DNA from: an uncultured Thermoplasmata archaeon
GTDB taxonomy: Archaea > Thermoplasmatota > Thermoplasmata > RBG-16-68-12
DNA length: 64,000 bases
NCBI GenBank assembly: GCA_963768855.1
Contig: CAVYJM010000012.1
Coordinates: 29,451 to 93,450 of the forward strand
Direction: 5' to 3'
Part shown: piece by piece, positions 4,723 to 61,690 of the stretch
How the letters are laid out: the number at the start of each line of letters is the position of its first letter
How positions within the stretch are numbered: position 1 is the first letter of the stretch
Notes under the pieces: generated by a model
What the model was told of the DNA's origin: nothing
Databases searched by the model: none
The model's input: only the letters and a program-made list of their open reading frames with translations
Made by a program: the position numbers and the translations under genes

Positions 4723-5355
4723 TCAGGTCGCCGGGCTCGCGCGGGCCGCGGGCTGGGCGGGCGCGGGTGCCGCGGCGGGGATCAGCTCGCCCGTATCGGC
4801 GTACCACCTGTGGGCGCGGTATGTCTGGGAGTCGACGAGGACGAGCCGTCCCTGCACGATCTGGAAGTCGCTGGGCTCCGCCACGCCGTCGGACTGGCAG
4901 CTCGGGCAGCGCTTGACCTTCGCCCCCTGGAGGGCGTCCGCAAGGGTCTTCGCCGCGGCTGGCGTCGCAGCTGAGGTCGGTTTGGGAGTCGAGGTCGGGA
5001 TCGGCGGGGTCGCTGCAGACGGAGAAACCGGAGTCGGCGGAGGCCGGGGGGCGGCCGGCGTGGGAGTCGCCCCAACCCCGGTCGGCGCGGAAGGCGGGGA
5101 TGGCGCGGCGGGCTTCGCCGCGGGTGCCGGGCTCGGCGCCGGTGTGGGCGTTGCAGCGGCTGCCGGTTTCGGGGACGCCACCGCGGGCGGGGCCGGTTTC
5201 GGAACGCCCGGTGCGGCGGGCGGGGCGGGAACCGGGACGGGGACGGAGAGATCCTCCTCCCAGATCGCCGCGCACACGCCGCACGTGTGGATCTTGCTCG
5301 TGGAGGCGTTGCAGGTCTGAGGCCCGCAATTCGGGCAGTGGTGTTCCCTCGCCAT
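4723..5355 (-). CDS. zinc-ribbon protein with a long Pro/Ala/Thr-rich low-complexity linker
   Basis: 210 aa. N-terminal HHCPNCGPQTC...CGVC and C-terminal CPSC motifs are separated by about 120 residues of PAPP/PTP low complexity. Confidence 0.6.
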   Translation of the reverse strand: MAREHHCPNCGPQTCNASTSKIHTCGVCAAIWEEDLSVPVPVPAPPAAPGVPKPAPPAVASPKPAAAATPTPAPSPAPAAKPAAPSPPSAPTGVGATPTPAAPRPPPTPVSPSAATPPIPTSTPKPTSAATPAAAKTLADALQGAKVKRCPSCQSDGVAEPSDFQIVQGRLVLVDSQTYRAHRWYADTGELIPAAAPAPAQPAARASPAT

Positions 5356-7163: not shown

Positions 7164-8374
7164 TGGTGCGCGAGGCCGTCTGGGTGCCGAACGATCCGGT
7201 GCACCTCGTTCGCCTCGAAGGGGGGGTGCAGACCGTGGGCGACCCGCGGTACCGGTCGTACTGGGAGAAGGAGCCGCCTGCAGGGTACGTCCCGGACCTC
7301 CTCTGGAAGCTCGCTGGGAAGCCGGAAGGCGTGCCCGTCTCCGGAATCCGCGACGACAACCGCTCCGCGCTCCTCCCTGAACGGCGCTTGGCGATCGGCG
7401 GCCAGGAATTCCTGGCTGCGGTCAAGGGCTGCGGCGCCGGCGTGGACGCCTTCGAGAACGCGCCGCTGACCGCGGAGCGCGTGCGGGCGATCGGCCGCGA
7501 TGGGGCCGCCCTCGAGAGGATCGCCTCGGAGAATGGCGCGAGCGAGGGCTTCATCACGGGCGAGCGGTGGTTCGGCAACACCCCTTACGGCGGCCAAGCA
7601 CCCGACAACGCGGCGATTGGTTTCCTGACGAGTCTGCGGGCGACAGACGCGCAGATCGCGGGGTTCCACGTGTGCCCGATCATCGGCCTGGTCCGGCTCC
7701 CGGACGCGCTGGCGGGGATCGCCTCCCGCTTCTTCTGGTACCGCCGGTACGAGGGAGAATTCTGGCAGGAGATCCGGCTCATGCCCTCGAACGTCCGCCT
7801 GTACTTCCACAGCCCGGTCACCTTCGGGATCGACACGTCGCGGGCCCTCTCCCTCTTCGGGGTCGCGTCGTTCGACGAGGCGGAACGGTTCCTCGAGAAC
7901 CTCGCCCGGTCCGCCCTCGCCGCGCTCACGCTCTACGCCCGCACCCTGCGGCACGACTCCGTGCGCGGGGGGTACCGGGGCCTCGGATACCACGACGTGT
8001 GGCTCGACAAGGACGCGGTGATCGCGCCGGACGGCACGATGCACTTCGCGGATCTCGAGGGGATCGAAGAGATCCCCGCACCAAACGAGGAGGCGGTCCG
8101 GGAGGAGATCGGGAAGCAGTTCCACCGCAACGTGTACGAGGCCACGTACGCCCTCGAGGCTCTCGCATGGGACGTGGATCGCCGGTGGCGTGCGTTCCGC
8201 TCCGCGCCGGAGCGCCGGCGCTGGATCCTCGAGGTCCTCGAACGCGCCTGCGTCGCGGACCCCTTCCTCTCCCTCGACCGTCGCGGCGCGAACCTGGTCC
8301 TCGGAGTGGAGCCCGCGGTCGAGCCGGAGACCTGTCGTGTGGAGATTGACCTCGCATCGGAGGTGGGGCGGTAG
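7160..8374 (+). CDS. hypothetical protein, possibly protein-kinase-like fold
   Basis: 404 aa. The GTG/ATG start overlaps the upstream stop (GTGATG), indicating translational coupling. YHDVWLDKDAVIAPDGTMHFADLEG resembles an HxD-x4-(N/D) catalytic loop followed by a DFG/DLE-type metal-binding strand. No firm family assignment. Confidence 0.55.
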   Translation: MMVREAVWVPNDPVHLVRLEGGVQTVGDPRYRSYWEKEPPAGYVPDLLWKLAGKPEGVPVSGIRDDNRSALLPERRLAIGGQEFLAAVKGCGAGVDAFENAPLTAERVRAIGRDGAALERIASENGASEGFITGERWFGNTPYGGQAPDNAAIGFLTSLRATDAQIAGFHVCPIIGLVRLPDALAGIASRFFWYRRYEGEFWQEIRLMPSNVRLYFHSPVTFGIDTSRALSLFGVASFDEAERFLENLARSALAALTLYARTLRHDSVRGGYRGLGYHDVWLDKDAVIAPDGTMHFADLEGIEEIPAPNEEAVREEIGKQFHRNVYEATYALEALAWDVDRRWRAFRSAPERRRWILEVLERACVADPFLSLDRRGANLVLGVEPAVEPETCRVEIDLASEVGR

Positions 8375-9830
8375 ATGGACAGCGGTCGAGTGCGCGCAAT
8401 CCTCGAAGGGATCGAAGGCCACCAGGAGGCGTCCATGTCCTCGGAGGAACGGGGTGTCCTCGTGACGCAAGGCCTGGTGAAGAGCGTGGACGCTCCCACG
8501 CGGGACCGGTGGACCGCGGGCGTCGCCAACCTCGTCGCCTTGCGGGACCGGGTCCGCGATCTGTCGCGGCAGGCGCTCGCGACTCCGGGACCGGACGCGC
8601 CGCCCGAGCTGCGGCAGATGATCGCCAGCCTCGAGGAACTCACCCGGGAGAAGTCGTCCCTCGGCGCCCTCGTCTGGAACGGGCCCACGCAGGAGTACGT
8701 CCAGGTGACGCTCGCGGGCCGGGGCGTCCTGGAGGACCTCAAGACCTGGGAGAAACGGCTCTCGGGTCGGGACTTCGCCCAGTTTCAGCAGGAGCTGGGG
8801 ACGTACCGCGCCGGGCTCGTCGACCTCGTGAACCGCGCCTCGCTCTTGAACCGCAGCCTGACCCTGGACGAGCAGAGCCGCCTGGACGACGAGTGGGCCG
8901 CCGCGCCCATGACGAACGTGGACGTCCGCTTTGCCTCGATGATCCTCGCGAAGCGTCCCGTGAACCCGGGGATGCTCGTCTCGGAGTTCCAGTGGTTCAA
9001 TCATGACACGAACTGGGGGACCTTCAGTCCCGAGGACCGCCTCGTCGCCTCCGCGATCCTGACCTCCCTTCCGTGGGACCCGGCGATCGTCCGGAGCACG
9101 TTCGAGCGGATCCGCATCGCGCTCCAGTACCACGGGATCTCTCCGGAGGACCGGGTCATCGTCGCCGCGTCCCTCGCGGACCTCCAGGAGGGCTGGTGGG
9201 AGCAGGTCTTCTCCCGGATTGACGAGGTCAAGAAGCAGCGTCCCGCTCTGAACTCCCTCCTCGATCTCCGCGCTCGCCCGCTCGCCCTACCCCGTCGCGG
9301 AAGCGCTCGGCCGCTTCGACGGCGCGTTGTCGGGCATGGCTGCGAAGGGCTTCAAGGATGGAATCCAGTTGGACATCGCGGCCTCCCTCCTTGCGTCATC
9401 CCAAGTCCCTCAGGAAGCCCTGGTCGACCGTTTCGCCTACACGTTGTCGAACGTGCAGGGCGCGTTCGATCCCCCGTTCGCGCCCGCCGCGATGCTCGCC
9501 ACGAACCCGCTCGAGCCGAACGAGGCGATCGACGTCTTCCGGGACTGCATCGGGGCCGTGACCCGGATGAGCTTCTTCGACCTCACCCTCGAGATCGAGG
9601 AGCTCGCCCTGATCATGAGCTACGGCGTCGCTCCCCTCGGGACGGGCTACCTGGGCGGGAACCTGCCCCCCGGGGCCGCGCTGCAACCGCCCGCCGCCGC
9701 AATGGCCGCAGCCGTGACGGGCCTCGGGACGTCGTGGTACGTCTGGCACAACTACTTCGTGTACCGCCCGATCGGCCGATACATCGCGACCCATCCGGTC
9801 CACGTGCACACCGTGGCGGCGTTCGGCTAG
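8375..9830 (+). CDS. hypothetical helical-repeat protein, reading frame interrupted by a +1 shift near 9252..9275
   Basis: The ATG at 8375 directly follows the upstream stop. Frame 2 looks coding up to ...KKQRPALNSLLDL, then turns Arg-rich and runs open to 10960 through two opposite-strand genes. Frame 0 is coding from 9252 (…SALARSPYPVAEALGRFDGALSGMAAKGF…) to the stop at 9830 (track ORF 9327..9830). Confidence 0.55.
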
Positions 9831-10693
9831 GCTTTCGGCTCGAACCCGTACAGGCGGTCGCGGTTCGCCTCGAGCTGGTCGACCGCGCGGCCTGCGTACT
9901 CGGCCGCAGTCTGGAGGCGGACGTCGTGTTCCTCGGCCGTGGCCCGGAGGGGCTCGAGCCGAGTCCGCCACTCACGGTCCCGGAGCAGGTGGTGATCGAG
10001 GAGGAGGGTGCGGACGTCCGTGCTCCGCAGGGTCCTCGCCAGGTTCGCGAGGGAATGCTTCGTGTGCTCCTCGGGATAGTTCTCCGGCATGTGGGTCATC
10101 GGACCGTCCACGTAGAGGATCGTCGGGTTCGCGTCCACGAGGAACCCGAGCTGCTCCTTGAGGGGCGGACCCTCCACGTCGCCCGTGTGGACGAAGACCT
10201 CGTCGCCCTCGGCGATGCGCGCCATGACGACATAGCCCAGGGCGTCGTCGTAGCCGTGGGGCACCGCCGGCGAGAACGTGAGCTCCGTCCCACCGAACTC
10301 GACATCGTTCCCGTCCGCGACCTGGATCTCCTTTGGGTACTTCTTGAGCGCCCGGACGAACGCGCTCGCGCGCTCCCGCTGGCTGCGGTTGATATGGAAC
10401 TTGCCGTCCTTGAGGAAGGCCACCTTGCCCTTGTAGATCGACGGGGCGTCCGGATTGTGGTGGTCGTAGTGGTAATGACTCACCGTCAGGACGTCCGCCC
10501 TCTTGGCTGCTTCCTTCACGCCCCGCCAGAGTTCCTTCTGCCGCTCGTCCTCCGTCGGGTGCGGCGGGAGGTCGTATCGCCAGGGAGCGAGCCGGACGCC
10601 CGGGTCCAGGAGGATCGTCACGTCCCGCGTCTCGACGAGGGTGGCCATGGACCGCGCGCCGAGGCTGTCCGCGGCGAGGGGCGTGACCTTCAT
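9827..10693 (-). CDS. metallo-beta-lactamase-fold protein, archaeal UPF0282-like
   Basis: Start at MKVTPLAADSLGARSMATLVET (an ATGA overlap with the upstream gene). HYHYDHH metal motif and VHTGD. About 290 aa, typical for the archaeal UPF0282 family. Confidence 0.7.
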   Translation of the reverse strand: MKVTPLAADSLGARSMATLVETRDVTILLDPGVRLAPWRYDLPPHPTEDERQKELWRGVKEAAKRADVLTVSHYHYDHHNPDAPSIYKGKVAFLKDGKFHINRSQRERASAFVRALKKYPKEIQVADGNDVEFGGTELTFSPAVPHGYDDALGYVVMARIAEGDEVFVHTGDVEGPPLKEQLGFLVDANPTILYVDGPMTHMPENYPEEHTKHSLANLARTLRSTDVRTLLLDHHLLRDREWRTRLEPLRATAEEHDVRLQTAAEYAGRAVDQLEANRDRLYGFEPKA

Positions 10694-11472
10694 CGGATCA
10701 CCGCTTCGCCCCACACTTGCTTCCGCACGCGGTGGAAGCCGAGCGACGCGGTGAGCTCGAGCGACGGCAGGTTGTCCGTCTTCACATGGAGCGCGGGGAT
10801 CTTGCCGCGGTCAAGAATATCCTTCGTGAGGGCCGAGGACACGGACCTCGCGTACCCCTTGCCCCGGTGGCCCTCGAGCACGTGCAGGAATCCCATCATG
10901 GACACCCGCGGCGTCTCGAGGTGGGTGAACGCCCACGCGACGGGCTTGCCCTCCTCGTAGACCGCATAGGCGTGGCCTGCCTGGATCCGCTCTCGGACGT
11001 ACTCCGCGGCCCGGTCCCAATCGGGGTCCCAGACCTTGCCGACGAGCTCGGCCCACTCCGGTCCCAGGGGCCGGACGTCATGCCGCACTGCGTCACGGAA
11101 GTCCTTCGGATCGAGTTCGAAGAGCCAGAAGACGCCGCCGTCCAATTCGGAGGCGCGGGGCTCCACCAGGGAGAGCATCCACTCCTCGCCCAGATGGAAG
11201 AAGCACGGCCCGGACGGCCAGGCGGGCAGGACCTCCTGGGCCGCCCTCGGGTCGGAGGCGTACAGGGCAATCCCCGCGGCGCCGGTGGCCCACTCCGGCC
11301 GGACCACACCGAGGACGGCCTGCGGCGGCTCTCCGTCGACGTAGACCTCCTTCTCGCCCTCCATCTCGAAGCTGCGATACCGGGCGACCGCCGACGACAC
11401 GGGGTCTTGGTCGAGGAACGCCTCGACCGCGGCGCGGTCCTTCGTCCGGTGTGGCGGCGTAGGGGGTGGCAT
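10690..11472 (-). CDS. GNAT-family N-acetyltransferase
   Basis: The C-terminal half has a GNAT core (AYAVYEEGKPVAWAF...GFLHVLEGHRGKGYARSVSSAL...ASLGF). ATG 11472 is preferred over TTG 11487. Its stop overlaps the start of the MBL gene. Confidence 0.7.
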   Translation of the reverse strand: MPPPTPPHRTKDRAAVEAFLDQDPVSSAVARYRSFEMEGEKEVYVDGEPPQAVLGVVRPEWATGAAGIALYASDPRAAQEVLPAWPSGPCFFHLGEEWMLSLVEPRASELDGGVFWLFELDPKDFRDAVRHDVRPLGPEWAELVGKVWDPDWDRAAEYVRERIQAGHAYAVYEEGKPVAWAFTHLETPRVSMMGFLHVLEGHRGKGYARSVSSALTKDILDRGKIPALHVKTDNLPSLELTASLGFHRVRKQVWGEAVIR

Positions 11473-11520
11473 GCCGACGCCCCTCAAAAACCTTCGACCT
11501 GCATCCCGTCCGGACGTCGC

Positions 11521-12162
11521 TCAGCGATTCCGGATCTCCGCCTCGATCTCGGCGGCCGCCTTCGCGGGATCCGCGGCTTCGTAGAGCGCGCGGCCCACGA
11601 TGACCGCGTCCGCTCCGGCCCGGATCGCATCCGCGGGCTTCCCGCCCTGCGCCCCGACCCCCGGGGACAGGATGACGCGGTTGCCCACGATGCCCCGGAG
11701 GACGCGCACGCGCTCCGGTCGCGTGGCCGGCGCGATGATGCCTGCGGCCCCCGCGCGGACCGCGAGCCGCGCGAACTCCTCGGCATGCTTCGCGGTGAAC
11801 TCCTGGCCGCCGGGGTGGCTCATCTCGGTCAGGACGAACACCTCGGCTTCCTTCGCCGCTTCGACGCAGGCCCGCACGGAATCCTCGCCCGCGAAGGCGT
11901 GGCAGATGACCCCGGACGCGCCGAGGGCGACGGCCTGCTCGACGATGAGCCGGTTCGTGTTGGGGATGTCCGCGATCTTGAAGTCGCACAGAACGTAGGC
12001 GGACGCTGCGAACTCTTTCACGATGCTCGGACCCGCGGCGAGCACGAGGGGCCAGTTCACCTTGAGGGCGTCCACGCGATCCGCCAAGGCCCTCCCGACG
12101 GAACGGGCGCGGGCCACGTCGGTTGCGTCGATCGCGGCGACGATCCGATGCTTCAGCCGCAT
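11521..12162 (-). CDS. pyrF: orotidine 5'-phosphate decarboxylase
   Basis: 213 aa from MRLKHRIVAAIDA. DFKIADIPNT, LTEMSHPG and SPGVGAQGG motifs. The remaining 5' part of ORF 11521..12945 is antisense to the GTPase gene. Confidence 0.85.
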   Translation of the reverse strand: MRLKHRIVAAIDATDVARARSVGRALADRVDALKVNWPLVLAAGPSIVKEFAASAYVLCDFKIADIPNTNRLIVEQAVALGASGVICHAFAGEDSVRACVEAAKEAEVFVLTEMSHPGGQEFTAKHAEEFARLAVRAGAAGIIAPATRPERVRVLRGIVGNRVILSPGVGAQGGKPADAIRAGADAVIVGRALYEAADPAKAAAEIEAEIRNR

Positions 12163-12235: not shown

Positions 12236-12243
12236 CTTAAGTA
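12236..12243 (+). promoter_or_regulatory. TATA-box-like element CTTAAGTA upstream of the first GTPase gene
   Basis: An isolated A/T-rich octamer 31-38 nt upstream of ATG 12274. Similar TTAAGT cores precede the next two genes. Confidence 0.4.
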
Positions 12244-12273
12244 GCGTCGCGCGCATCTCCGCGGGGCCCTTGC

Positions 12274-12837
12274 ATGACCCAAGTCCAGCGCATTAAGACG
12301 AAGGTCTGCCTCGTCGGGGAGGCCGCGGTCGGCAAGACGTCCCTCATCCGCCGCTATGTGCAGGACGAGTTCGACGACCGCTACATCACGACCCTCGGCG
12401 CGAAGGTCTCGAAGAAGGAGCTGGAGTTCGATCTCCCGGACAAGGACACGAAGGTCCAGATGGACATGACGATCTGGGACATCATGGGCGAGAAGGGCTT
12501 CCGGGACCTCCTGAAGGAGGCGTTCTTCCACGGCGCGAAGGGCACGATCGCGGTCTGCGACCTCACGCGCTACTCCACGCTCAAGGAGCTCGACGACTGG
12601 GTGCAGAGCGTCTTCAACGTGGTCGGGGAGATCCCGGTCGTCTTCGCGATCAACAAGATCGACCTGAAGGACGAGGTCATGATCCTCTACGGGGAGAAGG
12701 AGATCGGGCAGGCCGTGCGCGCGTTCGAGGCGCCGTATTTCTATACCTCGGCCAAGACCGGCGAGAACGTGGAGACGCTGTTCAAGCGACTGGGGTCGAT
12801 GGTCCTCGCGAAGGAGGGCATCGCGACCCCTTCGTGA
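12274..12837 (+). CDS. Ras-superfamily small GTPase (Rab/Ras-like)
   Basis: 187 aa. G1 GEAAVGKTS, switch I YITTLG, G3 WDIMGEKGF, G4 NKID, G5 TSAKTG. Confidence 0.85.
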   Translation: MTQVQRIKTKVCLVGEAAVGKTSLIRRYVQDEFDDRYITTLGAKVSKKELEFDLPDKDTKVQMDMTIWDIMGEKGFRDLLKEAFFHGAKGTIAVCDLTRYSTLKELDDWVQSVFNVVGEIPVVFAINKIDLKDEVMILYGEKEIGQAVRAFEAPYFYTSAKTGENVETLFKRLGSMVLAKEGIATPS

Positions 12838-12867
12838 TTCTCGCGGGCGGCAAACCGGGCCACAAGC

Positions 12868-12875
12868 GTTAAGTG
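12868..12875 (+). promoter_or_regulatory. TATA-box-like element GTTAAGTG upstream of the second GTPase gene
   Basis: An A/T-rich core in the GC-rich spacer, about 43 nt upstream of ATG 12917. A GGAGAGGT Shine-Dalgarno-like element lies just before the ATG. Confidence 0.35.
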
Positions 12876-12916
12876 CCCCACGGCCTCCCGTCGGGCGGTC
12901 GCAGCGGAGAGGTCGG

Positions 12917-13468
12917 ATGACGGAAACGAAGCACCTCAAGTCCAAGATCTGTCTCGTCGGGGAGAAGGCCGTCGGGAAGACGAGCCTGATCCGCCGCTAC
13001 GTCCTCGACATGTTTGACGATCAGTACATCACGACGATCGGGACGCGGGTCTCGAAGAAGGAGGCGCGGGTCTTCCTCCCCGAGCGCGACCTGCTCGTCG
13101 ACGTCGACATGCAGATCTGGGACATCATGGGCGAGAAGGGCTTCCGCGAGCTGCTCAAGGAGGCCTACTTCTACGGCGCCAACGGCATCCTGGCGGTCGC
13201 CGACCTGACACGCCGCAAGACGCTCGACGACCTCGACGACTGGATCGACGGGGTCGAGCAGATCGTGGGCAAGGTCCCGGTCCTGATCGCGGTCAACAAG
13301 AGCGACCTCGTGTCGAGCTCGCAGTACGGGGAGCGGGACATCGAACAGGTGGCCCGCGCGTTTGATTGCCCCTTCCTCCTGACGTCGGCGAAGTCCGGTT
13401 CGAACGTCGAAGAAGTGTTCCGGCGCATCGGCCAGCTGGTCACGGAATCCCAGCTCGCTCCGAAGTGA
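12917..13468 (+). CDS. Ras-superfamily small GTPase (paralog of 12274..12837)
   Basis: 183 aa. G1 GEKAVGKTS, YITTIG, WDIMGEKGF, NKSD, TSAKSG. Colinear with the upstream paralog. Confidence 0.85.
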   Translation: MTETKHLKSKICLVGEKAVGKTSLIRRYVLDMFDDQYITTIGTRVSKKEARVFLPERDLLVDVDMQIWDIMGEKGFRELLKEAYFYGANGILAVADLTRRKTLDDLDDWIDGVEQIVGKVPVLIAVNKSDLVSSSQYGERDIEQVARAFDCPFLLTSAKSGSNVEEVFRRIGQLVTESQLAPK

Positions 13469-13541
13469 GACCCGGGCGGCGCCGAGCAGTCGGTTCGAAC
13501 GACGTTCACTTGCGCCCCTCCTGACCCGGGTCCGCGAAATC

Positions 13542-13549
13542 ATTAAGTA
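13542..13549 (+). promoter_or_regulatory. TATA-box-like element ATTAAGTA upstream of the surface-protein gene
   Basis: Third copy of the TTAAGT core, about 105 nt upstream of ATG 13655. Confidence 0.3.
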
Positions 13550-13654
13550 CGCTCCGCTCGATGGACGCGCCCCCGAAGCCGGTGCCTGTGGGTTGCAGGC
13601 AATGGGGGAGGGGTCTCGGGCCGGGAGCGGGGACCAACCGGATTGGAAACACCC

Positions 13655-15777
13655 ATGCTCGCGCGAAGTCAGACTCGGACCGCAACGAGCCCGATACGGT
13701 GGCTCTTGTTGCTCTTCATCGTGTTCGTCCTGGCGCTCAGCGTAACACCTCCCTCTCGCGGGGAGATCCCAACCATGCAGCCGAATCCGGACGCATCGCG
13801 GACGGTCACATGGGTCATGAACGACTCGGCGGGGCTGAAGACCGCCCAGAACATCTCCTTCGTAGGCGGGAACGCCACGCTGGCCTGGACGCCGGTCCTA
13901 CTGAACTGGTCGCAGGGTTCGGATTTCGAGGCGAACGTGTCCGGGTCGCTCGATCCGAACGTGACCGCGGACGCGAGCGGGTTGGCCCTTGGGGCGAACC
14001 TCAGCAACCGCCTCATGGACGGGGACTTCGGGTCCTCCGGAGTCTGGGCCTACGCGAACGGAACCGCGAACAACACCACGGCTGAGTGGATCCCGTATCT
14101 TGGGATGGCGCGGCTCAACCACTCCTCGCCGACGACGCAGACTCTCTGGGACTCCTTTGCGAACATCGCCGCGAACTGGACACCGACTTCGTCGCTCCAG
14201 TCGACCAGCCACGTCTACCAGGCCGCGGGTGCGATGGGCGACTTCGTGAACGTAACGGCGGGGGTGGATCAGTTTGCCGGCGCCCTGAATGCGGGAATCA
14301 TAAACTGGTCTGGATACGATCAGCTGAGGATCATGATTCATCTCAACGCCTCCGCGCCGGCAGCGTTCAACATGTCGGCCCTGGACAGCGGCTTTCACAC
14401 CCAAACGACCCAGCCGGTTGCGTTGGCGGCCGATTGGAACACCGTCACGGTGGATCTCGACCAGCTCGGACCGAACCGGTCGGCGCTCGCCTTCCTGAGA
14501 TTCCGAATCGTCGGGCTTGGCGGCCAAGCGTTGCCGCCTCTCAACGTGCTCTTCCTAGATGCCGAGATCGGTCGGGCGAAGGTGGCTGACACGACGGCCA
14601 GCGTAAGCCAGATGTTCACCAAGACGTTCACGGCGCCTTCCGCGGGGAGTGCCTACTTGTCCTTCGACTGGACGATCGAGAACCAGACCGGCGTGGCCAG
14701 TTCCATCATGAGCGCGACTCTGGACGGCCCGTCGGGGCAGTTCAGTACGAGCCTCTTGTGGAGGTTCCCATCCGAGTGGCACCACCTCGTCGCGGACGTC
14801 TCGCCCCAGGTGGCCGAGGCCGGGCCCGTACAGCCTGAGCTTCAGCCTGCGGGTCGAGCTCGACAACATCACCCCTTCGAATGTGACGGCCTACGTCGAC
14901 AACGCGGCCTTCGTATACCCCGACCGCCACAACGGCACATACCTTTCCCAGCCCCTCAGCTTCGGCGCCGATTCGCGATATTTGCGTCTCACCTGGTTGG
15001 ATGTGCTGCCCTCGTCCGAGACGACGGCTCGCCTCGCGTTCCAGACAGGCAACACCACGTCCGCTTGGGGGAGCTGGCACGAGTTCGCGACCCCCGGGAC
15101 CTACGGCCTTGCGGAGGGAGCGGTCTGGTTCCGCGTTCGTGCGGATCTCAACACCACGAACGCCAGTGTCTCACCAATCCTGTCCGCGCTCTCCGTTTCA
15201 GCGGAGCACCGGATCGCACACGGGGTCATCGTATCGGAGACGTACTCCGCCGATCCGGACTTCCTCCGGTGGCGGAGCTTCAACGCCTCTTGGGAGGCCG
15301 GCCAGTTGAATTCGGTCAACTTTTGGGTCGGCAACGGGAGCTACTGGACCGCCGTCACGCCGGGCGCCGATCTGGGCTTCGTCACGGGCCCCCGGCTCGC
15401 ATGGAAGGCCGTCCTGACCACGTTCGACACCCTGCAGACTCCCGCGTTGGCGGACTTCGCGGTCACGTACGAATTCCTCGGCGCTCCGGTGTCGATCTCG
15501 ATTGTCGCCGGGTGGCCCGCTCAATGTCACGCAGGGCCAGAGCGTTGCGTTCTCCGCTCGAGTTCTCGATGCGGGGGCCCACGCGGTCCCCACCGCTTCC
15601 ATCGTTTGGTCGACGACAGATCCGATGGGTCACGTCTACAACAACGGTACGTACGTCGCCGGATCGATCGGTGACTTCTACGTGAACGCCACGGTCTCTG
15701 GACTCACGTCGGTGACCCAGTCGGTCGTCGTCCATGTCTCGGCAGGCAACATCCCCGTGGCGGGCTGGTTGGTGGGG
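13655..15777 (+). CDS. large extracellular sequon-rich (putatively N-glycosylated) surface protein with a C-terminal Ig-like domain; coding frame shifts +1 twice inside this span and once at its end
   Basis: Signal/anchor MLARSQTRTATSPIRWLLLLFIVFVLALSV (ATG 13655; TTG 13643 is an alternative start). By motif content and G/C third positions, coding is in frame 2 up to about 14825, frame 0 (track ORF 14883..15674) up to about 15503, and frame 1 (start of ORF 15502..16644) up to about 15777. SISISPGGPLNVTQGQSVAFSARVLDAG...VVVHV looks like a Big_2-type Ig domain. I counted 29 N-x-S/T sequons by hand. Confidence 0.6.
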
Positions 15778-16318
15778 AGTCTGGCCGTATGTCCTCCTGG
15801 TGGCCGCAGCCGCGATGGTCGGGTTCGCCCTGTACCAGCTCGCGATCGTTCGGGTCTACCCCATCGACGATGTCTTCCTGATCGCAAAGGACGGACGGCT
15901 GATCGTGCACAACACGCGACGCATGCGCGCCGACCGGGACGAGGACATCCTGTCCGGCATGCTCACCGCGATCATGTCGTTCCTTCGGGACCAGGATCCC
16001 GAGGAGAACGGGGAGCTGAAACGGTTCGAAGTCGGAGGCAAAACGACCTTGCTCGAGCGGGGTCCCCACGTCTACCTTACCGCCATCTACTCCGGGCGCG
16101 TCCCGCGCTGGGCCGGGAAGGACCTGCATCGCTTCATGGGGGACTTGGAGGATCATTTCGGCGACGCGTTCGCGAACTGGTCGGGCTCCCCGGAAGACCT
16201 CCATGGCCTCAAGGAGTTCATGGGCAGGTTCGTCTCCCACGTGAGGTATCGCGGCGACCCCCCGCTCGAGCCGACGCGCAAGCTGAACGCGGCTCAGCGC
16301 GGGACGAACAACAGGTAG
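15734..16318 (+). CDS. TM helix + cytoplasmic Roadblock/LC7-like domain; either the C-terminal part of the 13655 surface protein (preferred) or an independent 194-aa ORF
   Basis: WPYVLLVAAAAMVGFALYQLAIV is a TM helix. The pattern IDDVFLIAKDGRLIVH..DEDILSGMLTAIMSFLRD..LKRFEVGGKTTLLERGPHVYLTAIYSG matches the beta-beta-alpha-beta-beta pattern of Roadblock/MglB domains. G/C third-position bias becomes strong only from about 15778, which argues for a fusion with the upstream frame. Confidence 0.6.
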   Translation: MSRQATSPWRAGWWGVWPYVLLVAAAAMVGFALYQLAIVRVYPIDDVFLIAKDGRLIVHNTRRMRADRDEDILSGMLTAIMSFLRDQDPEENGELKRFEVGGKTTLLERGPHVYLTAIYSGRVPRWAGKDLHRFMGDLEDHFGDAFANWSGSPEDLHGLKEFMGRFVSHVRYRGDPPLEPTRKLNAAQRGTNNR

Positions 16319-16427
16319 AACATGACCGCGAATCCGAGGAGCATGAACCCCGTCGAGATGATCCACATCCACTTGAGGAGCCGCGACCGCTGCTCGGGGT
16401 TCTCCCACGCCCGCTCCAGGCGCTCCA

Positions 16428-17048
16428 TCACATGGCCTTGAACCGCTTGAGGCGCATGAAGTTGTCCCGCTCCATCTCCTCGAGCCGCTGGCGGATGAAG
16501 GCCTCCGTCGACTTCAGCTCCGGGATGACGCGGTACTCCAGCGCGTTCACGCGACGCTTCACCTTCTCGATCTCCTCGATCAGGCGGCGCATCGTCGTCT
16601 CGATCTCCGCGGCGACGACGATGTCCTCGACGAGGGCCTCGTAGGCCTCCGCGGCCTCGTCGATCCGCGCCGACGTGGTGATCACGCCGTACCCGCGGTC
16701 CTCGAGCTTCTTCCGGACGCTCTTCGCGTCAATCTTGGGGACGATGATTCCCATCACGTTCTTCGTTTTCAGGTCCAAGGTGGGCACCTCGCGGGACGCC
16801 AGTGCGGCCGAGCGCACGCCGAGGGATCCCTCGATGGCCCGGGCGATCACGATCCGCTGCTCCGCGGTCCGGTACTTCTCCGCGAGGTTGGATCGCAGGG
16901 TCTTCGCGCGGTCCAGGACGCGGAAGAACTCGACGATGAGCGCGTCTCGCTTCAGCTTCAGGAGGCGGTGGCCCCGCTCGGCCATCCGACGAGTCCGCCG
17001 CAGCTGGAGCAGCGCCGACCTCGTGGGCTTGTAGTTCTGGAGGACCAT
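16428..17048 (-). CDS. atpD: A-type ATP synthase subunit D
   Basis: 206 aa. KPTRSALLQLRRTRRMAERGHRLLKLKRDAL is typical of V/A-ATPase subunit D. Position after atpB. Confidence 0.9.
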   Translation of the reverse strand: MVLQNYKPTRSALLQLRRTRRMAERGHRLLKLKRDALIVEFFRVLDRAKTLRSNLAEKYRTAEQRIVIARAIEGSLGVRSAALASREVPTLDLKTKNVMGIIVPKIDAKSVRKKLEDRGYGVITTSARIDEAAEAYEALVEDIVVAAEIETTMRRLIEEIEKVKRRVNALEYRVIPELKSTEAFIRQRLEEMERDNFMRLKRFKAM

Positions 17049-18451: not shown

Positions 18452-20216
18452 TCAGCGCGCCTCCAGCTTCTTGAAGTCCTCGTCCATCATCGTCAGCGTT
18501 TTCTCGAGCTCCTGGTCGAACTTCTCCTCGTACTTCACCCGGGTCAGGAGCTCCCGCGACTTGACGGAGGCGATGTCCTTGACCGGCACGTCCAGGGAGG
18601 CGGCTTTGCGGCCGAGGTCCGCGAACTTCTTGATCGAGGAGATCAGCTTGAACTGCCGCTCGGGAGGGCAGAACGTGTCCACGGGGTGGTACGCGTTCTG
18701 CTGCAGGAAGATCTCCCGGACCATCCGCGCCACCTCGAGGGTGAGTTGCTGCTCGGGGGGGAGCGCGTCCGCACCGACCAGCCGCACGATCTCCTCGAGC
18801 TCGGCCTCTTCTTGCAGGGTGCGCTGCGCCCACGAGCGCAGCTTGGGCCACTCCTCGTTGACCTTCGTCCGGAACCACTCCTCGAGCTGCGGACCGTACA
18901 GGCTGTAGGAGGTGAGCCAGTTGATCGCAGGGAAGTGCCTCCGCGCGCGAAGGGCCGTGTCGAGGGCCCAGAACACCTTGACGATGCGGAGCGTCCCCTG
19001 GGTCACCGGCTCGGAGAAGTCGCCTCCGCTCGGGGACACGGCCCCGACGACGCTGACGCTCCCTTCCCGGCCATTCAAGGTGGTCACGCGACCGGCTCGC
19101 TCGTAGAACTCGCTCAACCTGGCAGACAGATACGCCGGGAACCCTTCCTCGCCCGGCATCTCCTCGAGTCGGCTCGAGATCTCACGCATCGCCTCGGCCC
19201 ACCGCGAGGTGGAGTCGGCCATGAGTGCGACGTTGTAGCCCATATCGCGGTAGTATTCCGCCAGGGTCATGCCGGTGTACACGGACGCTTCCCGTGCGGC
19301 GACGGGCATGTTACTCGTGTTCGCGATGAGGGCCATGCGATCCATGAGCGGAGCCCCCGTATACGGGTCCTCGAGCTTGGGGAACGTGGTCAGGACCTCC
19401 GTCATCTCGTTGCCGCGCTCGCCGCAGCCGATGTAGATGACCACCTGGGCGTCGCACCACTTGCTCAGTTGCTGCTCGCTCACCGTCTTCCCCGTCCCGA
19501 AGCCGCCGGGGATTGCGGCCGTGCCGCCCTTCGCGAGCGGGAACAGGAAGTCCATGACCCGCTGTCCCGTGATGAGCGGCACGGTAGGCATGAGCCGCTC
19601 CTTCGAGGGCCGGGGCCGGCGCACGGGCCACTCCTGCATCATCATGATCTTGCGGCCGTCGCTCAGCTCGACGACCGTCTCGTCGACCTTCATCTTCCCG
19701 GAGCGCACCCGGATGACCTTGCCGGACACATCCGGAGGGACCATGATCCGGTGCTCGACGTTCTTGGCCTCCTGCACGGTCCCGAGGACCTGGCCGCCCC
19801 GCACCGCGTCGCCTTCCTTGGCGAGGGGCTTGAAGTCCCAGAGTTTCTCGCGGCTCAGGCCCGGGGCGCGCACGCCGCGCAAGATGAAGTCGCCCATGAC
19901 CTTCTGCAGGACGGGCAGCGGTCTCTGGACGCCGTCGTAGATGTTGCCGAGGAGCCCGGGTCCGAGCTCCACGGTCAGGGGCTTCCCGGAGTCCACCACG
20001 GGCTCGCCCGGGGCGGATGCCCGCGGTTTCCTCGTAGACCTGGATGACCGTCTTCTCGCCGCGGAGCTGGATGACCTCGCCCATCAGCTTCTCGGTGCCG
20101 ACGTACATCACGTCGTACATCCGGGGCCGCAGGCCCGTCGCGGTCACGACCGGACCCGCGACCCGCTGAATCTCCCCCGTCGCTTTCCCATGCTCCACCG
20201 TCGCGCTCAGCGCCAC
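18452..20216 (-). CDS. atpA: A-type ATP synthase catalytic subunit A, frame interrupted by one extra base at 20007..20013
   Basis: The C-terminal 515 codons (ORF 18452..19999) carry the Walker A motif GGFGTGKT. The N-terminal 70 codons ([24 protein letters not shown]...[11 protein letters not shown]) are in the frame of ORF 19311..20216. The junction reads ATC CGC CCC G|GGC GAG CCC GTG. Confidence 0.9.
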
Positions 20217-60465: not shown

Positions 60466-61690
60466 ATGGAGTTCCAGTTTCTCGGCGGAGCCTCCGAGGT
60501 CGGCCGCCTGGGCATGGTCCTGAAGACCGGGCCGACGTCGACCCTGTTCGACTACGGGTTGCTGCCCGAAGGATCCGCCCCAGTATCCAATCCCCGCCCC
60601 TCCCGTCGACGGGATGTTCGTGAGCCACGCCCACCTGGACCACACGGGTATGATCCCGTGGATCACCCGCCGTCAGGATGTCGACGTCGTCCTGACCCCG
60701 CCCACTGCGGACGTCGCGGACCTGCTCCTCCAGGACAGCCTCAAGATCGCGGACGCGGAGGGCTTCGACGCCCCCTTCAACGACCAGGACCTGCGCACGG
60801 CGCGCCGTCGGTTCCGCACGATCGACTTCGGCGACAATGTGGACATGGGCGAGCTGGAGGTCACCGCCCACCCGGCCGGCCACATCCCCGGCGCCACGAT
60901 GTACGAGGTCAACGGGAACCAGACGATGCTCTTCACGGGCGACCTTCACACCCTGACGACGGACCTCGTATGGGGGGCGAAGCCGGTGAAGTGCGACACC
61001 CTGTTCGTCGAATCCACGTACGCCGGACGCCAGCACCCCGAGCGGCTCAAGTCGGAGCACGCGTTCCTCAAGAAGGTCGAGCAGGTCGTGAACCGGGGCG
61101 GGATCGCGCTCGTCCCCTCGTTTGCGGTCGGCCGCACGCAGGACATCATCCTCGCCCTGGCCAAGGCCCGCCACGAGGTCTGGCTGGACGGGATGGGGAA
61201 GAAGGTGAACTCGATCTACCTCGATCATCCGGAGTACGTCCGGTCCGCGAAGCAGCTCCGCCAGGCGATGCACAAGGTCAACGTCGTCGATGGTCCGAGG
61301 ACGCGGCAGCTCGCCGTCCGGGGGGAGGTCATTGTCTGCACGAGCGGGATGCTCGACGGCGGACCGGTGCTCCACTACCTCGACGCGATCCGCGACGACC
61401 CGAAGAGCGCGATCCTGCTCACCGGATACCAGGTCGAAGGGACGAACGGGCGGCAGCTCGTGGACAACGGCTCGATCGAGATGTACGGGGTGAACGTCGA
61501 CATCAAGATCGAGTGGCAGAAGTTCGACTTCTCCGCGCATGCGGGCCACGACGAGCTCGTCCGGTTCATCGAGGCCTGCGACCCGAGCCGGGTCGTCCTG
61601 ATGCACGGCGACCAGCGCGAGCTGCTCGCGGAGGCGCTCGAAGGACGCGAGGTCCTCCTTCCCATGGAAGGCAACTGGTACTCCCTGTAG
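60466..61690 (+). CDS. beta-CASP / metallo-beta-lactamase-fold ribonuclease-like protein, frame interrupted by one extra base near 60570..60585
   Basis: The N-terminus MEFQFLGGASEVGRLGMVLKTGPTSTLFDYGLLPEG is in frame 1. Frame 2 continues ...PPQYPIPAPPVDGMFVSHAHLDHTG (track ORF 60614..61690), with later motifs HPAGHIPGA, ESTY and SAHAGHDEL. Confidence 0.8.

Follow-up and report, generated by a model that had tools for sequence, protein, structure and literature searches.

Two tandem Rab-like GTPases and a membrane glycoprotein with a longin/roadblock-like tail suggest a receptor-to-GTPase module in soil Thermoplasmata

Based on sequence searches, structure models and comparison of gene neighbourhoods, we found that a 64-kb window (the whole stretch of DNA analysed) of a Thermoplasmata MAG encodes two lipid-anchor-free Rab-like small GTPases, here called G1 and G2, and directly downstream of them the gene of a receptor-like glycoprotein whose cytoplasmic tail domain (TL) is predicted to have a longin/roadblock fold. 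The conserved adjacency of these genes suggests, but does not prove, a module leading from a membrane receptor to GTPases. Tentatively, and with a confidence slightly short of even, we read the trio as a three-gene module of soil Thermoplasmata that forms a receptor-to-GTPase unit at the membrane. The features are collected in Table 1.

Table 1. Features of the G1-G2-receptor locus, in positions of the window.
Feature	Position	Strand	Basis or remark
TTAAGTA box, 37 nt 5' of G1 start codon	12237-12243	+	Probable TATA-type promoter element
G1, Rab-like small GTPase, 187 aa	12274-12837	+	Pfam Ras 3e-30, Roc 5e-27
TTAAGTG box, 48 nt 5' of G2 start codon	12869-12875	+	Ortholog-conserved flank
G2, paralogous Rab-like small GTPase, 183 aa	12917-13468	+	Pfam Ras 3e-32, Roc match
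TTAAGTA box, 112 nt 5' of receptor ATG (13655)	13543-13549	+	Promoter-like element of receptor
Receptor piece A, frame 2: signal peptide/anchor and first jelly-roll (CBM-like) modules, sequon-rich	13655-14824	+	Orthologs 32-47% identical
Receptor piece B, frame 0: more jelly-roll ectodomain	14826-15503	+	After +1 change at ~14824; ortholog alignment
Receptor piece C, frame 1: Ig-like beta-sandwich	15505-15753	+	Big_1 E = 0.034 (weak); ortholog model
Transmembrane helix, frame 2	15776-15856	+	Hydrophobicity scan; AF2 helix, residues 9-40 of 194-aa ORF
Cytoplasmic tail domain TL, signature HNTRRMRADRDEDILSGMLTAI	15854-16249	+	AF2 model, Foldseek
Receptor C-terminal extension (low-confidence in model) and stop codon	16250-16318	+	ORF list, AF2 model

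In pairwise comparison G1 and G2 are 58% identical, and both match the Ras as well as the Roc model of Pfam; G1 is also matched by small_GTP of NCBIfam and shares 74-96% identity with its orthologs, some of which are labelled 'Rab family GTPase' by NCBI. The closest relatives of G2 in the PDB are Ypt6, Rab6, Rab1, Sec4, Rab8 and a Thorarchaeota Rab (1e-24 to 1e-22). The initial annotation had described two tandem, paralogous GTPases of 183-187 aa with complete G1-G5 boxes on the plus strand, and the reading frames, Pfam matches and motif alignment bear this out: both proteins carry GExAVGKT (G1 box), YITT[LI]G (G2), WDIMG (G3), NK[IS]D (G4) and TSAK (G5). All five boxes are thus present, but the catalytic glutamine after DxxG is replaced by glutamate in G1, G2 and every ortholog, the G3 motif of G1 reading WDIMGEKGF. 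Sequence inspection of G1, G2 and their orthologs found no lipidation site, and G1 has no C-terminal cysteine.

The receptor tail had been taken for a Roadblock/LC7-type domain of about 170 residues. Some 150 residues follow the transmembrane helix, and the beta-beta-alpha-beta-beta segments that were pointed out coincide with the predicted secondary structure, which in the AF2 model (pLDDT 80) runs beta-beta-alpha-beta-beta-beta-alpha-alpha. When the TL model was compared with the PDB by Foldseek, the top 50 matches were nearly all longin or Roadblock proteins (E 1e-5 to 2e-3), with AP sigma (1e-5) followed by the zeta-COP, Sec22b, TRAPP and VAMP7 longins, and then by Roadblock, MglB, Ego3 and the Rag C-terminal domain. 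The model of a full-length ortholog gave the same longin/roadblock match for TL. At the sequence level TL had no match in Pfam at E <= 1, to Roadblock, longin-type or any other models, nor in NCBIfam or the PDB, and the hhalign probability for TL with a true Roadblock domain was 0.4%; Pfam, hhalign and other sequence searches detected no kinship to the Roadblock or longin families. Membership of TL in Roadblock/LC7 by sequence was rejected on these Pfam and hhalign results. The models suggest that TL adopts the longin/roadblock superfold, and its topology and best structural matches point to longin rather than Roadblock, so that the fold class first proposed holds in the model while the family assignment does not.

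The stitched receptor, 890 aa long, begins with a hydrophobic signal or anchor and contains a single transmembrane helix (residues ~711-737), in line with the signal peptide and one helix originally noted. A computed count of N-x-S/T sequons in the ectodomain returned the figure of 29 that had been obtained by hand, compared with 7.3 +/- 2.4 expected and a maximum of 15 in 2000 shuffles; the ectodomain is predicted to be heavily N-glycosylated. In Foldseek the ortholog ectodomain model resembled reelin repeats, CBM22, CBM11, CBM29 and MAM. The ortholog model shows the proposed Ig-like domain as a beta-sandwich, but its Pfam match (Big_1) is weak. Identity to receptor orthologs is 32-49% for the ectodomain versus 63-85% for TL, and in comparison to the close relative L162 it is 90% for G1, 85% for G2, 85% for TL and 37% for the ectodomain. 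The models thus show the receptor as a predicted type-I surface glycoprotein with a fast-evolving ectodomain of CBM-like jelly rolls and an Ig-like domain, which one transmembrane helix links to the strongly conserved cytoplasmic TL domain.

The expected GTPase-GTPase-receptor linkage was found, on one strand, in 13/13 species-level genome loci covering the region (from 12 MAGs), with no counter-example, and the same order is kept in close metagenome relatives (L162-L167). The whole region from pyrF through G1, G2 and the receptor to the atp operon is syntenic within the clade and the flanking housekeeping genes equal the trio in synteny, so that conserved gene order is by itself weak evidence for a functional link. 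TTAAGTR sites occur only three times in the window, counting both strands, namely at the G1, G2 and receptor boxes. Upstream regions of G1 orthologs keep the box as GACCCTTTAAGTAAYCC, those of G2 orthologs have GAAKCGTTAAGTAGNC, and the flank of the receptor box, AAATCATTAAGTACGC, is conserved among orthologs. Some relatives (L012, L022, L162) have additional genes between G2 and the receptor, and there the box remains beside the receptor. Since a conserved TATA-like box precedes every one of the three genes and such insertions occur, the trio is probably no strict operon but a set of neighbours with separate, similar promoters.

The strongest link between TL and GTPases lies in other loci, where a Roadblock and TL fusion is encoded upstream of three paralogous GTPases. 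In L098 and L125/L128 this soluble Robl_LC7-TL protein (Robl_LC7 at Pfam 4e-9 and 6e-6, above the gathering score; TL at 1e-23) is directly upstream of the GTPase genes; a Roadblock-TL gene is present in only 3 of ~70 triple-GTPase contigs. On L037, a 41%-GC Thermoplasmata chromosome, a related GTPase is followed by two TL proteins, the first of them 3,920 aa long. Fusion of TL to a GTPase itself was seen in 0/146 TL-family representatives.

The receptor gene of the window is split, its reading frame passing from 2 to 0 to 1 to 2 by three +1 changes near ~14824, ~15504 and ~15750 (the third within ~15745-15765). Receptor orthologs elsewhere are uninterrupted single ORFs of 817-986 codons that align collinearly with all four window pieces, and every intact ortholog encodes the exported part, the transmembrane helix and the tail in one gene. 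The single gene of ~890 codons initially annotated is therefore sound for the stitched product and the orthologs, but the window copy is broken. It might be a recent pseudogene with three true frameshifts, which would leave G1 and G2 without a partner and the module non-functional here; we hold this to be a possibility of some weight, on the doubtful side. Three breaks fall inside the 2.7 kb of the receptor, where a Poisson estimate from the background rate predicts ~0.2-0.4, as the remaining 61 kb have only ~4-5 further frameshift-like junctions. Against this, assembly indels also affect genes in which no break is expected: one at ~20009 divides the ATP synthase A subunit, which is nevertheless 92-94% identical to an intact ortholog, and the gene at 8375-9827 is split as well. 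Each frame piece is stop-free and the invariant TL residues are all retained. Contigs of other assemblies often end within the receptor (L001, L002, L003, L006, L015, L021, L163, L165, L166), which fits strain heterogeneity that also causes assembly errors. On balance, a true pseudogene is somewhat less probable than assembly indels.

The receptor could instead be a surface-coat, S-layer-like or adhesin glycoprotein. TL would then be a general juxtamembrane cytoplasmic module that serves the anchoring, sorting, oligomerisation or quality control of many Thermoplasmata surface proteins and has no dedicated GTPase, and G1 and G2 would lie beside it only through inherited synteny and act elsewhere. 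We consider this combined reading rather unlikely. The 29-36 sequons, the extremely divergent repeated beta-sandwiches, the single C-terminal helix and the conserved, strong-looking receptor promoter box are in its favour, as is the equal synteny of the flanking genes. So is the unannotated TL family itself, with 4,854 clusters at 50% identity, in which TL is mostly C-terminal or within giant proteins with CARDB, He_PIG, Big_9 or cadherin-like domains, or TPR and zinc ribbons. Most TL-family proteins have no adjoining GTPase, and a Ras-like GTPase is near TL in just one (L037) of 59 more distant loci and in none of the other 58. The conserved neighbours of a ~1,460-aa TL family look housekeeping, judged by reading the sequences and not by Pfam; they are presumably an AAA ATPase like proteasome-activating nucleotidase and an acyl-CoA-synthetase-like protein. 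However, three separate kinds of juxtaposition of TL and Rab-like GTPases occur in different lineages, one with a bona fide Roadblock fusion, known GTPase regulators use the fold class of TL, and G1 and G2 have no membrane anchor of their own. It is very improbable that G1 and G2 are instead ArvA-type vesiculating GTPases or an MglA/MglB-type polarity system with the receptor incidental. Conserved partner genes do accompany some euryarchaeal small GTPases (ArvABC, PMC10927574; MglA groups, PMC4316618), but no ArvB or ArvC gene (DUF2073, DUF2072; PMC10927574) follows G1 and G2, the next gene being the Pfam-negative receptor. Moreover, among solved structures Rab6, Ypt6 and Rab1 match best, rather than MglA or Arf/Sar, and Pfam found no separate Roadblock gene in the coding pieces of the trio or in the genes around the trio of L162.

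As in the MglA/MglB systems of Myxococcus and Thermus and other Roadblock/LC7 regulators, a Ras-superfamily GTPase is here encoded beside a protein of the roadblock/longin superfold, and MglB (3t1s, 6h5b) is linked to TL by Foldseek at ~2e-3; related contigs even fuse true Robl_LC7 to TL beside paralogous GTPases. In contrast to MglB, TL is the membrane-tethered, longin-like tail of a large glycoprotein and not Robl_LC7 by sequence, and G1 and G2, with glutamate for the catalytic glutamine, are Rab-like and not MglA-like. The best structural matches, AP sigma/mu, zeta-COP, Sec22b/VAMP7, TRAPP Bet5/Trs23 and Asgard longin/roadblock proteins (E 1e-5 to 1e-3, target TM 0.53-0.63), share the order of secondary structure elements with TL, and many longin platforms act with Arf or Rab GTPases; TL has no detectable sequence homology to these proteins, and its host is a MAG of the euryarchaeal Thermoplasmata instead of an Asgard archaeon. 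As a rule, the GTPase genes of the Asgard archaeon MK-D1 do not share operons with roadblock/longin genes (PMC10933270), whereas in the soil Thermoplasmata locus adjacency to a gene of this fold is conserved. The Streptomyces conservon also unites a membrane sensor (the kinase CvnA), a roadblock-fold protein (CvnB), CvnC and a small GTPase (CvnD) in a presumed signalling unit (PMC4316618); the present locus has neither histidine kinase nor CvnC, and two Rab-like GTPases in place of one MglA-like GTPase. Archaeal Rab-like GTPases (Surkont & Pereira-Leal 2016, PMC4915359; Thorarchaeota Rab, PDB 7ezb) resemble G1 and G2 in Ras-family fold, Rab-like best matches and absence of C-terminal prenylation cysteines, and single genes of this kind in Thermoplasmatales and Aciduliprofundum were already listed (PMC4915359). 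G1 and G2 differ in being conserved tandem paralogs, in having Glu invariably in place of Gln, and in lying next to a conserved membrane-protein gene. The vesiculating operon ArvA/ArvB/ArvC of Haloferax likewise joins a euryarchaeal small GTPase that acts at the membrane to conserved neighbouring partners, ArvA having been compared with Arf-type GTPases and described with an N-terminal alpha-helix with hydrophobic residues (PMC10927574); the G1/G2 locus lacks these partners and its GTPases are Rab-like.

Platforms for small GTPases are built from longin and roadblock domains in MglB, Ragulator, TRAPP and DENN (PMC4316618, PMC10933270), and for archaeal Rab-like proteins, which have no lipid anchors, recruitment to the membrane by protein partners has been proposed (PMC4915359). 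In the receptor-to-GTPase module, TL, probably dimeric like other longin/roadblock domains, would form a membrane-attached platform that docks G1 and/or G2 and may also set their nucleotide state in a GAP-like or GEF-like manner, so that events at the ectodomain, either binding or clustering, would be transmitted to an intracellular GTPase switch. The transmembrane input to Ras-like GTPases first suggested is supported in part: the fold, the linkage and the Roadblock-TL fusion beside GTPases speak in its favour, but an operon, Roadblock membership by sequence and an intact copy in the window are not borne out. The pairing of GTPases with roadblock or longin proteins is a known theme, and here the sensor and the longin/roadblock-like domain would be united in one polypeptide.

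The two tandem Rab-like small GTPase genes G1 and G2 and the gene of a large surface glycoprotein (the receptor) lie on one strand between the genes of OMP decarboxylase and the A-type ATP synthase operon. The receptor consists of an ectodomain, one transmembrane (TM) helix and a cytoplasmic tail; we use TL for the conserved domain of this tail and for the family of domains like it. A survey of relatives showed that the neighbourhood described in the initial annotation is conserved, as G1, G2 and the receptor occur on one strand and in that order in all 13 species-level genome loci covering the region, with no counter-example. Three further genome loci are cut off upstream, yet show G2 followed by the receptor, and six contigs of a close relative have the same G1-G2-receptor order. 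The window has a GC content of 64-71%, and the relatives of its genes are labelled Thermoplasmata, Methanomassiliicoccales or "Methanobacteriota".

Coordinates of the features discussed, in the window and in loci or contigs of relatives (L numbers)
Feature	Location	Coordinates	Strand	Remarks
Gene without Pfam match	Window	8375-9827	+	Split near 9262
OMP decarboxylase (pyrF)	Window	11521-12162	-	Upstream of the trio, divergent; Pfam 1e-41
GNAT acetyltransferase and MBL-fold protein	Window			Upstream, divergent flank of the trio, with OMP decarboxylase
TTAAGTR box of G1	Window	12237	+	37 nt upstream of start codon
G1	Window	12274-12837	+	Between OMP decarboxylase and atp operon
TTAAGTR box of G2	Window	12869	+	48 nt upstream of start codon
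G2	Window	12917-13468	+	Between OMP decarboxylase and atp operon
TTAAGTR box of receptor	Window	13543	+	112 nt upstream of start codon
Receptor-like gene	Window	13655-16318	+	Between OMP decarboxylase and atp operon
44-aa ORF	Window	16294-16428	-	Convergent with receptor gene
A-type ATP synthase operon, start (atpD)	Window	16428-17048		Downstream of the trio, convergent
ATP synthase A subunit	Window	18452-20216	-	Split at about 20007-20011
Roadblock-TL fusion	L098	487-1422
Roadblock-TL fusion	L125	183-1058
Roadblock-TL fusion	L128	593-1468
Second TL paralog	L012	10757-13255
Second TL paralog	L016	10759-13266
Second TL paralog	L017	6662-9277
Second TL paralog	L021	648-3146
Second TL paralog	L022	10702-13311

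Judged by profile matches, G1 and G2 are small GTPases of the Ras superfamily: Pfam Ras was matched at 3e-30 and 3e-32 (105 and 112 bits, cut-off 21.6), NCBIfam small_GTP TIGR00231 at 62 and 53 bits (threshold 42.5), and Pfam Roc also by both. The motifs of all five G boxes (GExAVGKT, YITT[LI]G, WDIMG, NK[IS]D and TSAK), previously read as complete in the two proteins, were indeed so in both and in all orthologs aligned. The label Rab-like follows best-match similarity (Rab6, Ypt6, Rab1, Thorarchaeota Rab), the closest solved structures for G2 being Ypt6, Rab6, Rab1, Sec4, Rab8 and a Thorarchaeota Rab (1e-24 to 1e-22). G1 and G2 are 58% identical, and G1 is strongly conserved (74-96% identity among at least 120 homologs listed, some of them named "Rab family GTPase" by NCBI). 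Their C-termini (...KEGIATPS and ...ESQLAPK) have neither Cys nor an extension, so that the prenylation motif of eukaryotic Rabs is absent; archaeal Rab-like proteins have likewise been reported without a C-terminal Cys (PMC4915359). The residue after DxxG, equivalent to Ras Q61, was Glu (WDIMGEKGF) instead of the catalytic Gln in every G1 and G2 ortholog examined, and Ser in the related GTPase of L037, a 41%-GC Thermoplasmata chromosome. The replacement of Gln by Glu points to an unusual mechanism of hydrolysis or to a need for a partner. Ras Q61E keeps or even gains intrinsic activity, so Glu at this switch position need not inactivate G1 or G2.

Related high-GC metagenome contigs (L086-L161) have another group of tandem Rab-like GTPase paralogs, usually three and otherwise two. 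In L104 this group spans 9977-11810 and is flanked by a ribosomal-protein operon and by lonB, which were both recognised by reading the sequences. Of the three paralogs, the first has retained the catalytic Gln (WDIMGQKGF), and Glu stands at this position in the other two.

The "~890-codon gene" of the initial annotation is correct as a stitched ancestral gene, but is not an ORF in the window. Six-frame translation placed the coding frame in frame 2 to ~14824, frame 0 to ~15503, frame 1 to ~15750 and again frame 2 to the stop at 16318, and intact orthologs are collinear with all four pieces. Every full-length relative is a single protein (817-986 codons stop-to-stop in genome loci L004-L022, 851-932 aa in the protein database and 887 aa in the close relative L162). 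Counted from the first start codon, TTG at 13643, the stitched receptor has 890 aa; from the likely ATG (13655) it has 886 aa. Three breaks in 2.7 kb exceed the background, for which we estimated about 0.2-0.4, as would be expected if the gene in the window were a true pseudogene. However, the essential ATP synthase A subunit gene is split as well, with residues 1-70 in frame -3 and 69-587 in frame -1 (92-94% identical to the intact 587-aa ortholog of L001). This split is probably an assembly indel, which indicates that the contig carries indel errors and favours assembly indels as the cause. A gene without Pfam match is also divided, between frames 2 and 0, where the L005 ortholog spans both pieces with 69-73% identity, and a GC-frame plot, a method successful only in part, gave one or two further frameshift-like candidates near 60590 and 4950-5190. 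Moreover, contigs of other assemblies very often end inside the receptor gene, and since the ectodomain is hypervariable, strain heterogeneity could explain both these ends and the excess of breaks. The frameshift sites were not pinned by nucleotide comparison with L162, the closest relative, as the ectodomain DNA was too divergent to align. Altogether, we regard a true pseudogene as less likely than not.

In some relatives the receptor gene is directly followed by another TL-bearing paralog, ~830-870 codons long and lacking a TTAAGTA box; none is present in the window. The window also has a 44-aa ORF (MERLERAWENPEQRSRLLKWMWIISTGFMLLGFAVMFYLLFVPR) directly after atpD, with one hydrophobic helix and an overlap of ~25 nt with the receptor 3' end, and a 44-45-aa gene is called at the equivalent place in L001, L002 and L162. 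The relatives L002 (3075-5321), L008, L010, L015, L017, L018 and L020 have a much longer gene for the ATP synthase A subunit, of about 750-1,140 codons. One of these genes gave a faint intein Pfam match, and alignments to the window break near 19466-19481, which suggests that the long genes carry inteins without counterpart in the window gene.

The stitched receptor has a hydrophobic segment at its N-terminus, and basic residues come after its single TM helix (~711-737). The 29 N-x-S/T sequons reported earlier for its ectodomain were counted again, against 7.3 ± 2.4 in shuffles, and the L162 ortholog has 36. A structure model of the 875-aa ortholog P0178 (61% identity) was made from an alignment of 30 sequences. 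The mean pLDDT was 86.7, with values above 90 across most of the ectodomain, and residues 41 to 695 were all-beta, followed by the TM helix and the tail. With Foldseek the ectodomain appeared as stacked jelly-roll modules, matching reelin repeats (7e-10), tandem CBM22, CBM11, CBM29 and the MAM-containing RPTPmu ectodomain; the sole Pfam match of the receptor was a weak one to Big_1, at the Ig-like module. Identity between the window and L162 was 90% for G1, 85% for G2, TL and pyrF and 97% for atpD, whereas it was 37% for the ectodomain (L162 receptor gene at 7984-10647). Inside the cell the receptor is as constrained as its cytoplasmic neighbours, whereas its outer part diversifies. The CBM-like, heavily glycosylated and hypervariable character of the ectodomain suggests that it binds external glycans or surfaces, or that it is exposed to viruses.

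The tail had no match in Pfam (E <= 1), NCBIfam or PDB sequences, and none at E <= 1 among the longin-type Pfam families Longin, Clat_adaptor_s, Sybindin, Sedlin_N and SRX. Comparison by hhalign of the TL alignment with the Robl_LC7 half of natural Roadblock-TL fusion proteins was not significant (probability 0.4%, E = 0.15). In the AF2 model of the tail (pLDDT 80) the TM helix is followed by the order beta-beta-alpha-beta-beta-beta-alpha-alpha, and the beta and alpha segments picked earlier from the sequence coincide with this model; the Roadblock fold is alpha-beta-beta-alpha-beta-beta-beta. In Foldseek searches against PDB the first matches were almost all longin domains (1e-5 to 1e-3, probability 1.0), including AP-1/2/3 sigma, the mu N-terminal domain, zeta-COP, Sec22b, VAMP7 and TRAPP Bet5/Trs23. 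Roadblock-fold matches ranked below them at ~1e-3 (dynein LC7, Ego3, Rag C-terminal domains, MglB and Asgard Roadblock), and 4p6z_S was matched again from the P0178 model. As modelled, TL has the topology of a longin domain and is structurally similar to this class. Because these fold matches come without significant profile similarity to Roadblock, TL is a new sequence family within the longin/roadblock superfold, with a topology nearer longin. The proposal of a Roadblock-type tail agrees with the superfold of the model, whose best structural matches are longin domains, but membership of Roadblock/LC7 is not supported by sequence.

At 50% identity the TL family has 4,854 representatives, of which 3,396 match below 1e-10. 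The module has ~125 residues, usually follows a hydrophobic segment, is present in one, two or three copies per protein and carries the signature H-x-T/A-R-R-x-x-x-x-x-D-x-D-I-L-S/T-G/A/S-M-L-T-A-I-x-x-F-x-x-D. Partner domains include CARDB, He_PIG, Big_9 and cadherin-like ectodomains, DUF5915, and TPR repeats with zinc ribbons, and the largest proteins reach 2,396 aa among database representatives and 3,920 codons in an ORF of L037. Among giant TL proteins (in the set of P0070 and P0079, both family representatives), some have Pfam DUF5915 at their end; in others TL is found together with TPR repeats and zinc ribbons, or in two or three copies spaced by about 500 residues. The neighbours kept beside a ~1,460-aa TL family look like housekeeping genes.

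In three metagenome contigs (L098, L125 and L128) a soluble 263-287-aa protein is encoded directly upstream of three tandem paralogous GTPases. Its N-terminal half matched Pfam Robl_LC7 (4e-9 and 6e-6, above threshold), with a Roadblock/LC7 protein as top PDB match (5.5e-10), and its C-terminal half is TL (1e-23). This natural fusion links TL with the class of GTPase regulators that is known best in prokaryotes, and it is encoded next to GTPases from the same clade. In L037, additionally, two TL genes come after the related GTPase (41% identity): the first encodes a 3,920-aa protein with TL in its interior and the second a TL protein of 500 aa. Together with the fold, the L037 neighbourhood, the conserved gene order and the constraint on TL against the diverging ectodomain, the fusion partly supports the proposed input module coupling the ectodomain to the GTPases, for which we see slightly less than an even chance. 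TL, probably dimeric like other longin/roadblock domains, would then provide G1 and/or G2, which have no anchor of their own, with a platform fixed in the membrane, and may serve as their GAP or GEF or simply recruit them.

In this clade, however, synteny covers everything from pyrF to the atp operon, which counts against a specific link between receptor and GTPases, and most TL loci lack a GTPase: none was found near 58 of 59 distant TL loci, L037 alone having a Ras-like one. Of ~70 triple-GTPase contigs only 3 had the Roadblock-TL gene, no TL neighbour was seen beside the G37-type GTPases of other contigs, and no GTPase-TL fusion was found among 146 TL-family representatives. The receptor might instead be a surface-coat or adhesin-like glycoprotein whose TL has no dedicated GTPase partner, with G1 and G2 as neighbours by synteny, an explanation that we consider unlikely. 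The coupled module also has a far-reaching form, in which the membrane-tethered TL domains of Thermoplasmatota form a new and very large family of GTPase platforms and the locus is a true transmembrane receptor-to-small-GTPase pathway of a non-Asgard archaeon, its glycan-binding-like hypervariable ectodomain controlling two Rab-like switches via the longin-like tail. This form is improbable as it stands; if true, it would be a prokaryotic counterpart of receptor-coupled Ras/Rab signalling, and longin-GTPase membrane partnerships would not be confined to Asgard archaea and eukaryotes.

Against 0.84 expected, TTAAGTR was found at only three sites of the 64-kb window, on the plus strand in each case. 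In the orthologous loci (L005-L022) the same box precedes each of the three genes, with gene-specific conserved flanks, and is found almost nowhere else, so each gene apparently has its own promoter. Genes are inserted between G2 and the receptor in some relatives, namely one for a 425-aa helical protein (L012, L013, L022) and an opposite-strand 150-aa ORF (L162), and the receptor box then stays attached to the receptor. Because of the separate boxes and these insertions strict co-transcription is unlikely, and the trio are co-located genes with similar promoters. TTAAGTA was rejected as a mark specific for a GTPase/receptor regulon, as it precedes lonB and not the GTPases in triple-GTPase contigs (in L104 it lies at 11888, ~56 nt before lonB, and similarly in others); probably it is a variant of the TATA box that serves some of the promoters in this lineage.

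In logic, the closest known systems are MglA/MglB and the Streptomyces conservon, which consists of a membrane sensor kinase, a Roadblock protein, CvnC and a GTPase (PMC4316618). Membership of the conservon (CvnABCD) was rejected, as the locus consists of G1, G2 and the receptor only, and Pfam showed neither a kinase nor a separate Roadblock or CvnC-type domain in it. In ArvABC, ArvB (DUF2073) is encoded directly downstream and ArvC (DUF2072) nearby (PMC10927574); here G1 is followed by G2 and the receptor, which both lack DUF2073 and DUF2072 Pfam domains, and this assignment was rejected because ArvB and ArvC are absent. In fold, TL is closest to eukaryotic and Asgard longin domains (PMC10933270). 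A limited literature search, including Asgard-focused work, found no description of a single-pass glycoprotein with a longin/roadblock-fold tail beside Rab-like GTPases.

The pairing of a small GTPase with a longin/roadblock platform is a hallmark of eukaryotic membrane traffic, and prokaryotic GTPase/roadblock pairing is understood mainly through MglA/MglB. The locus offers a conserved and testable GTPase/platform pairing in a euryarchaeal lineage, with the platform-like domain joined to a surface glycoprotein, and the Roadblock-TL fusion gives an experimental handle. The TL family (about 4,850 clusters at 50% identity), which has no Pfam or NCBIfam model, is defined by this work, and if the coupling is not real, TL is still a cytoplasmic module, so far uncharacterised, that many giant surface proteins of archaea share. 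A TL-GTPase pairing would solve how anchor-less archaeal Rab-like proteins reach the membrane, and a real coupling would give receptor-to-GTPase signalling a wider evolutionary base.
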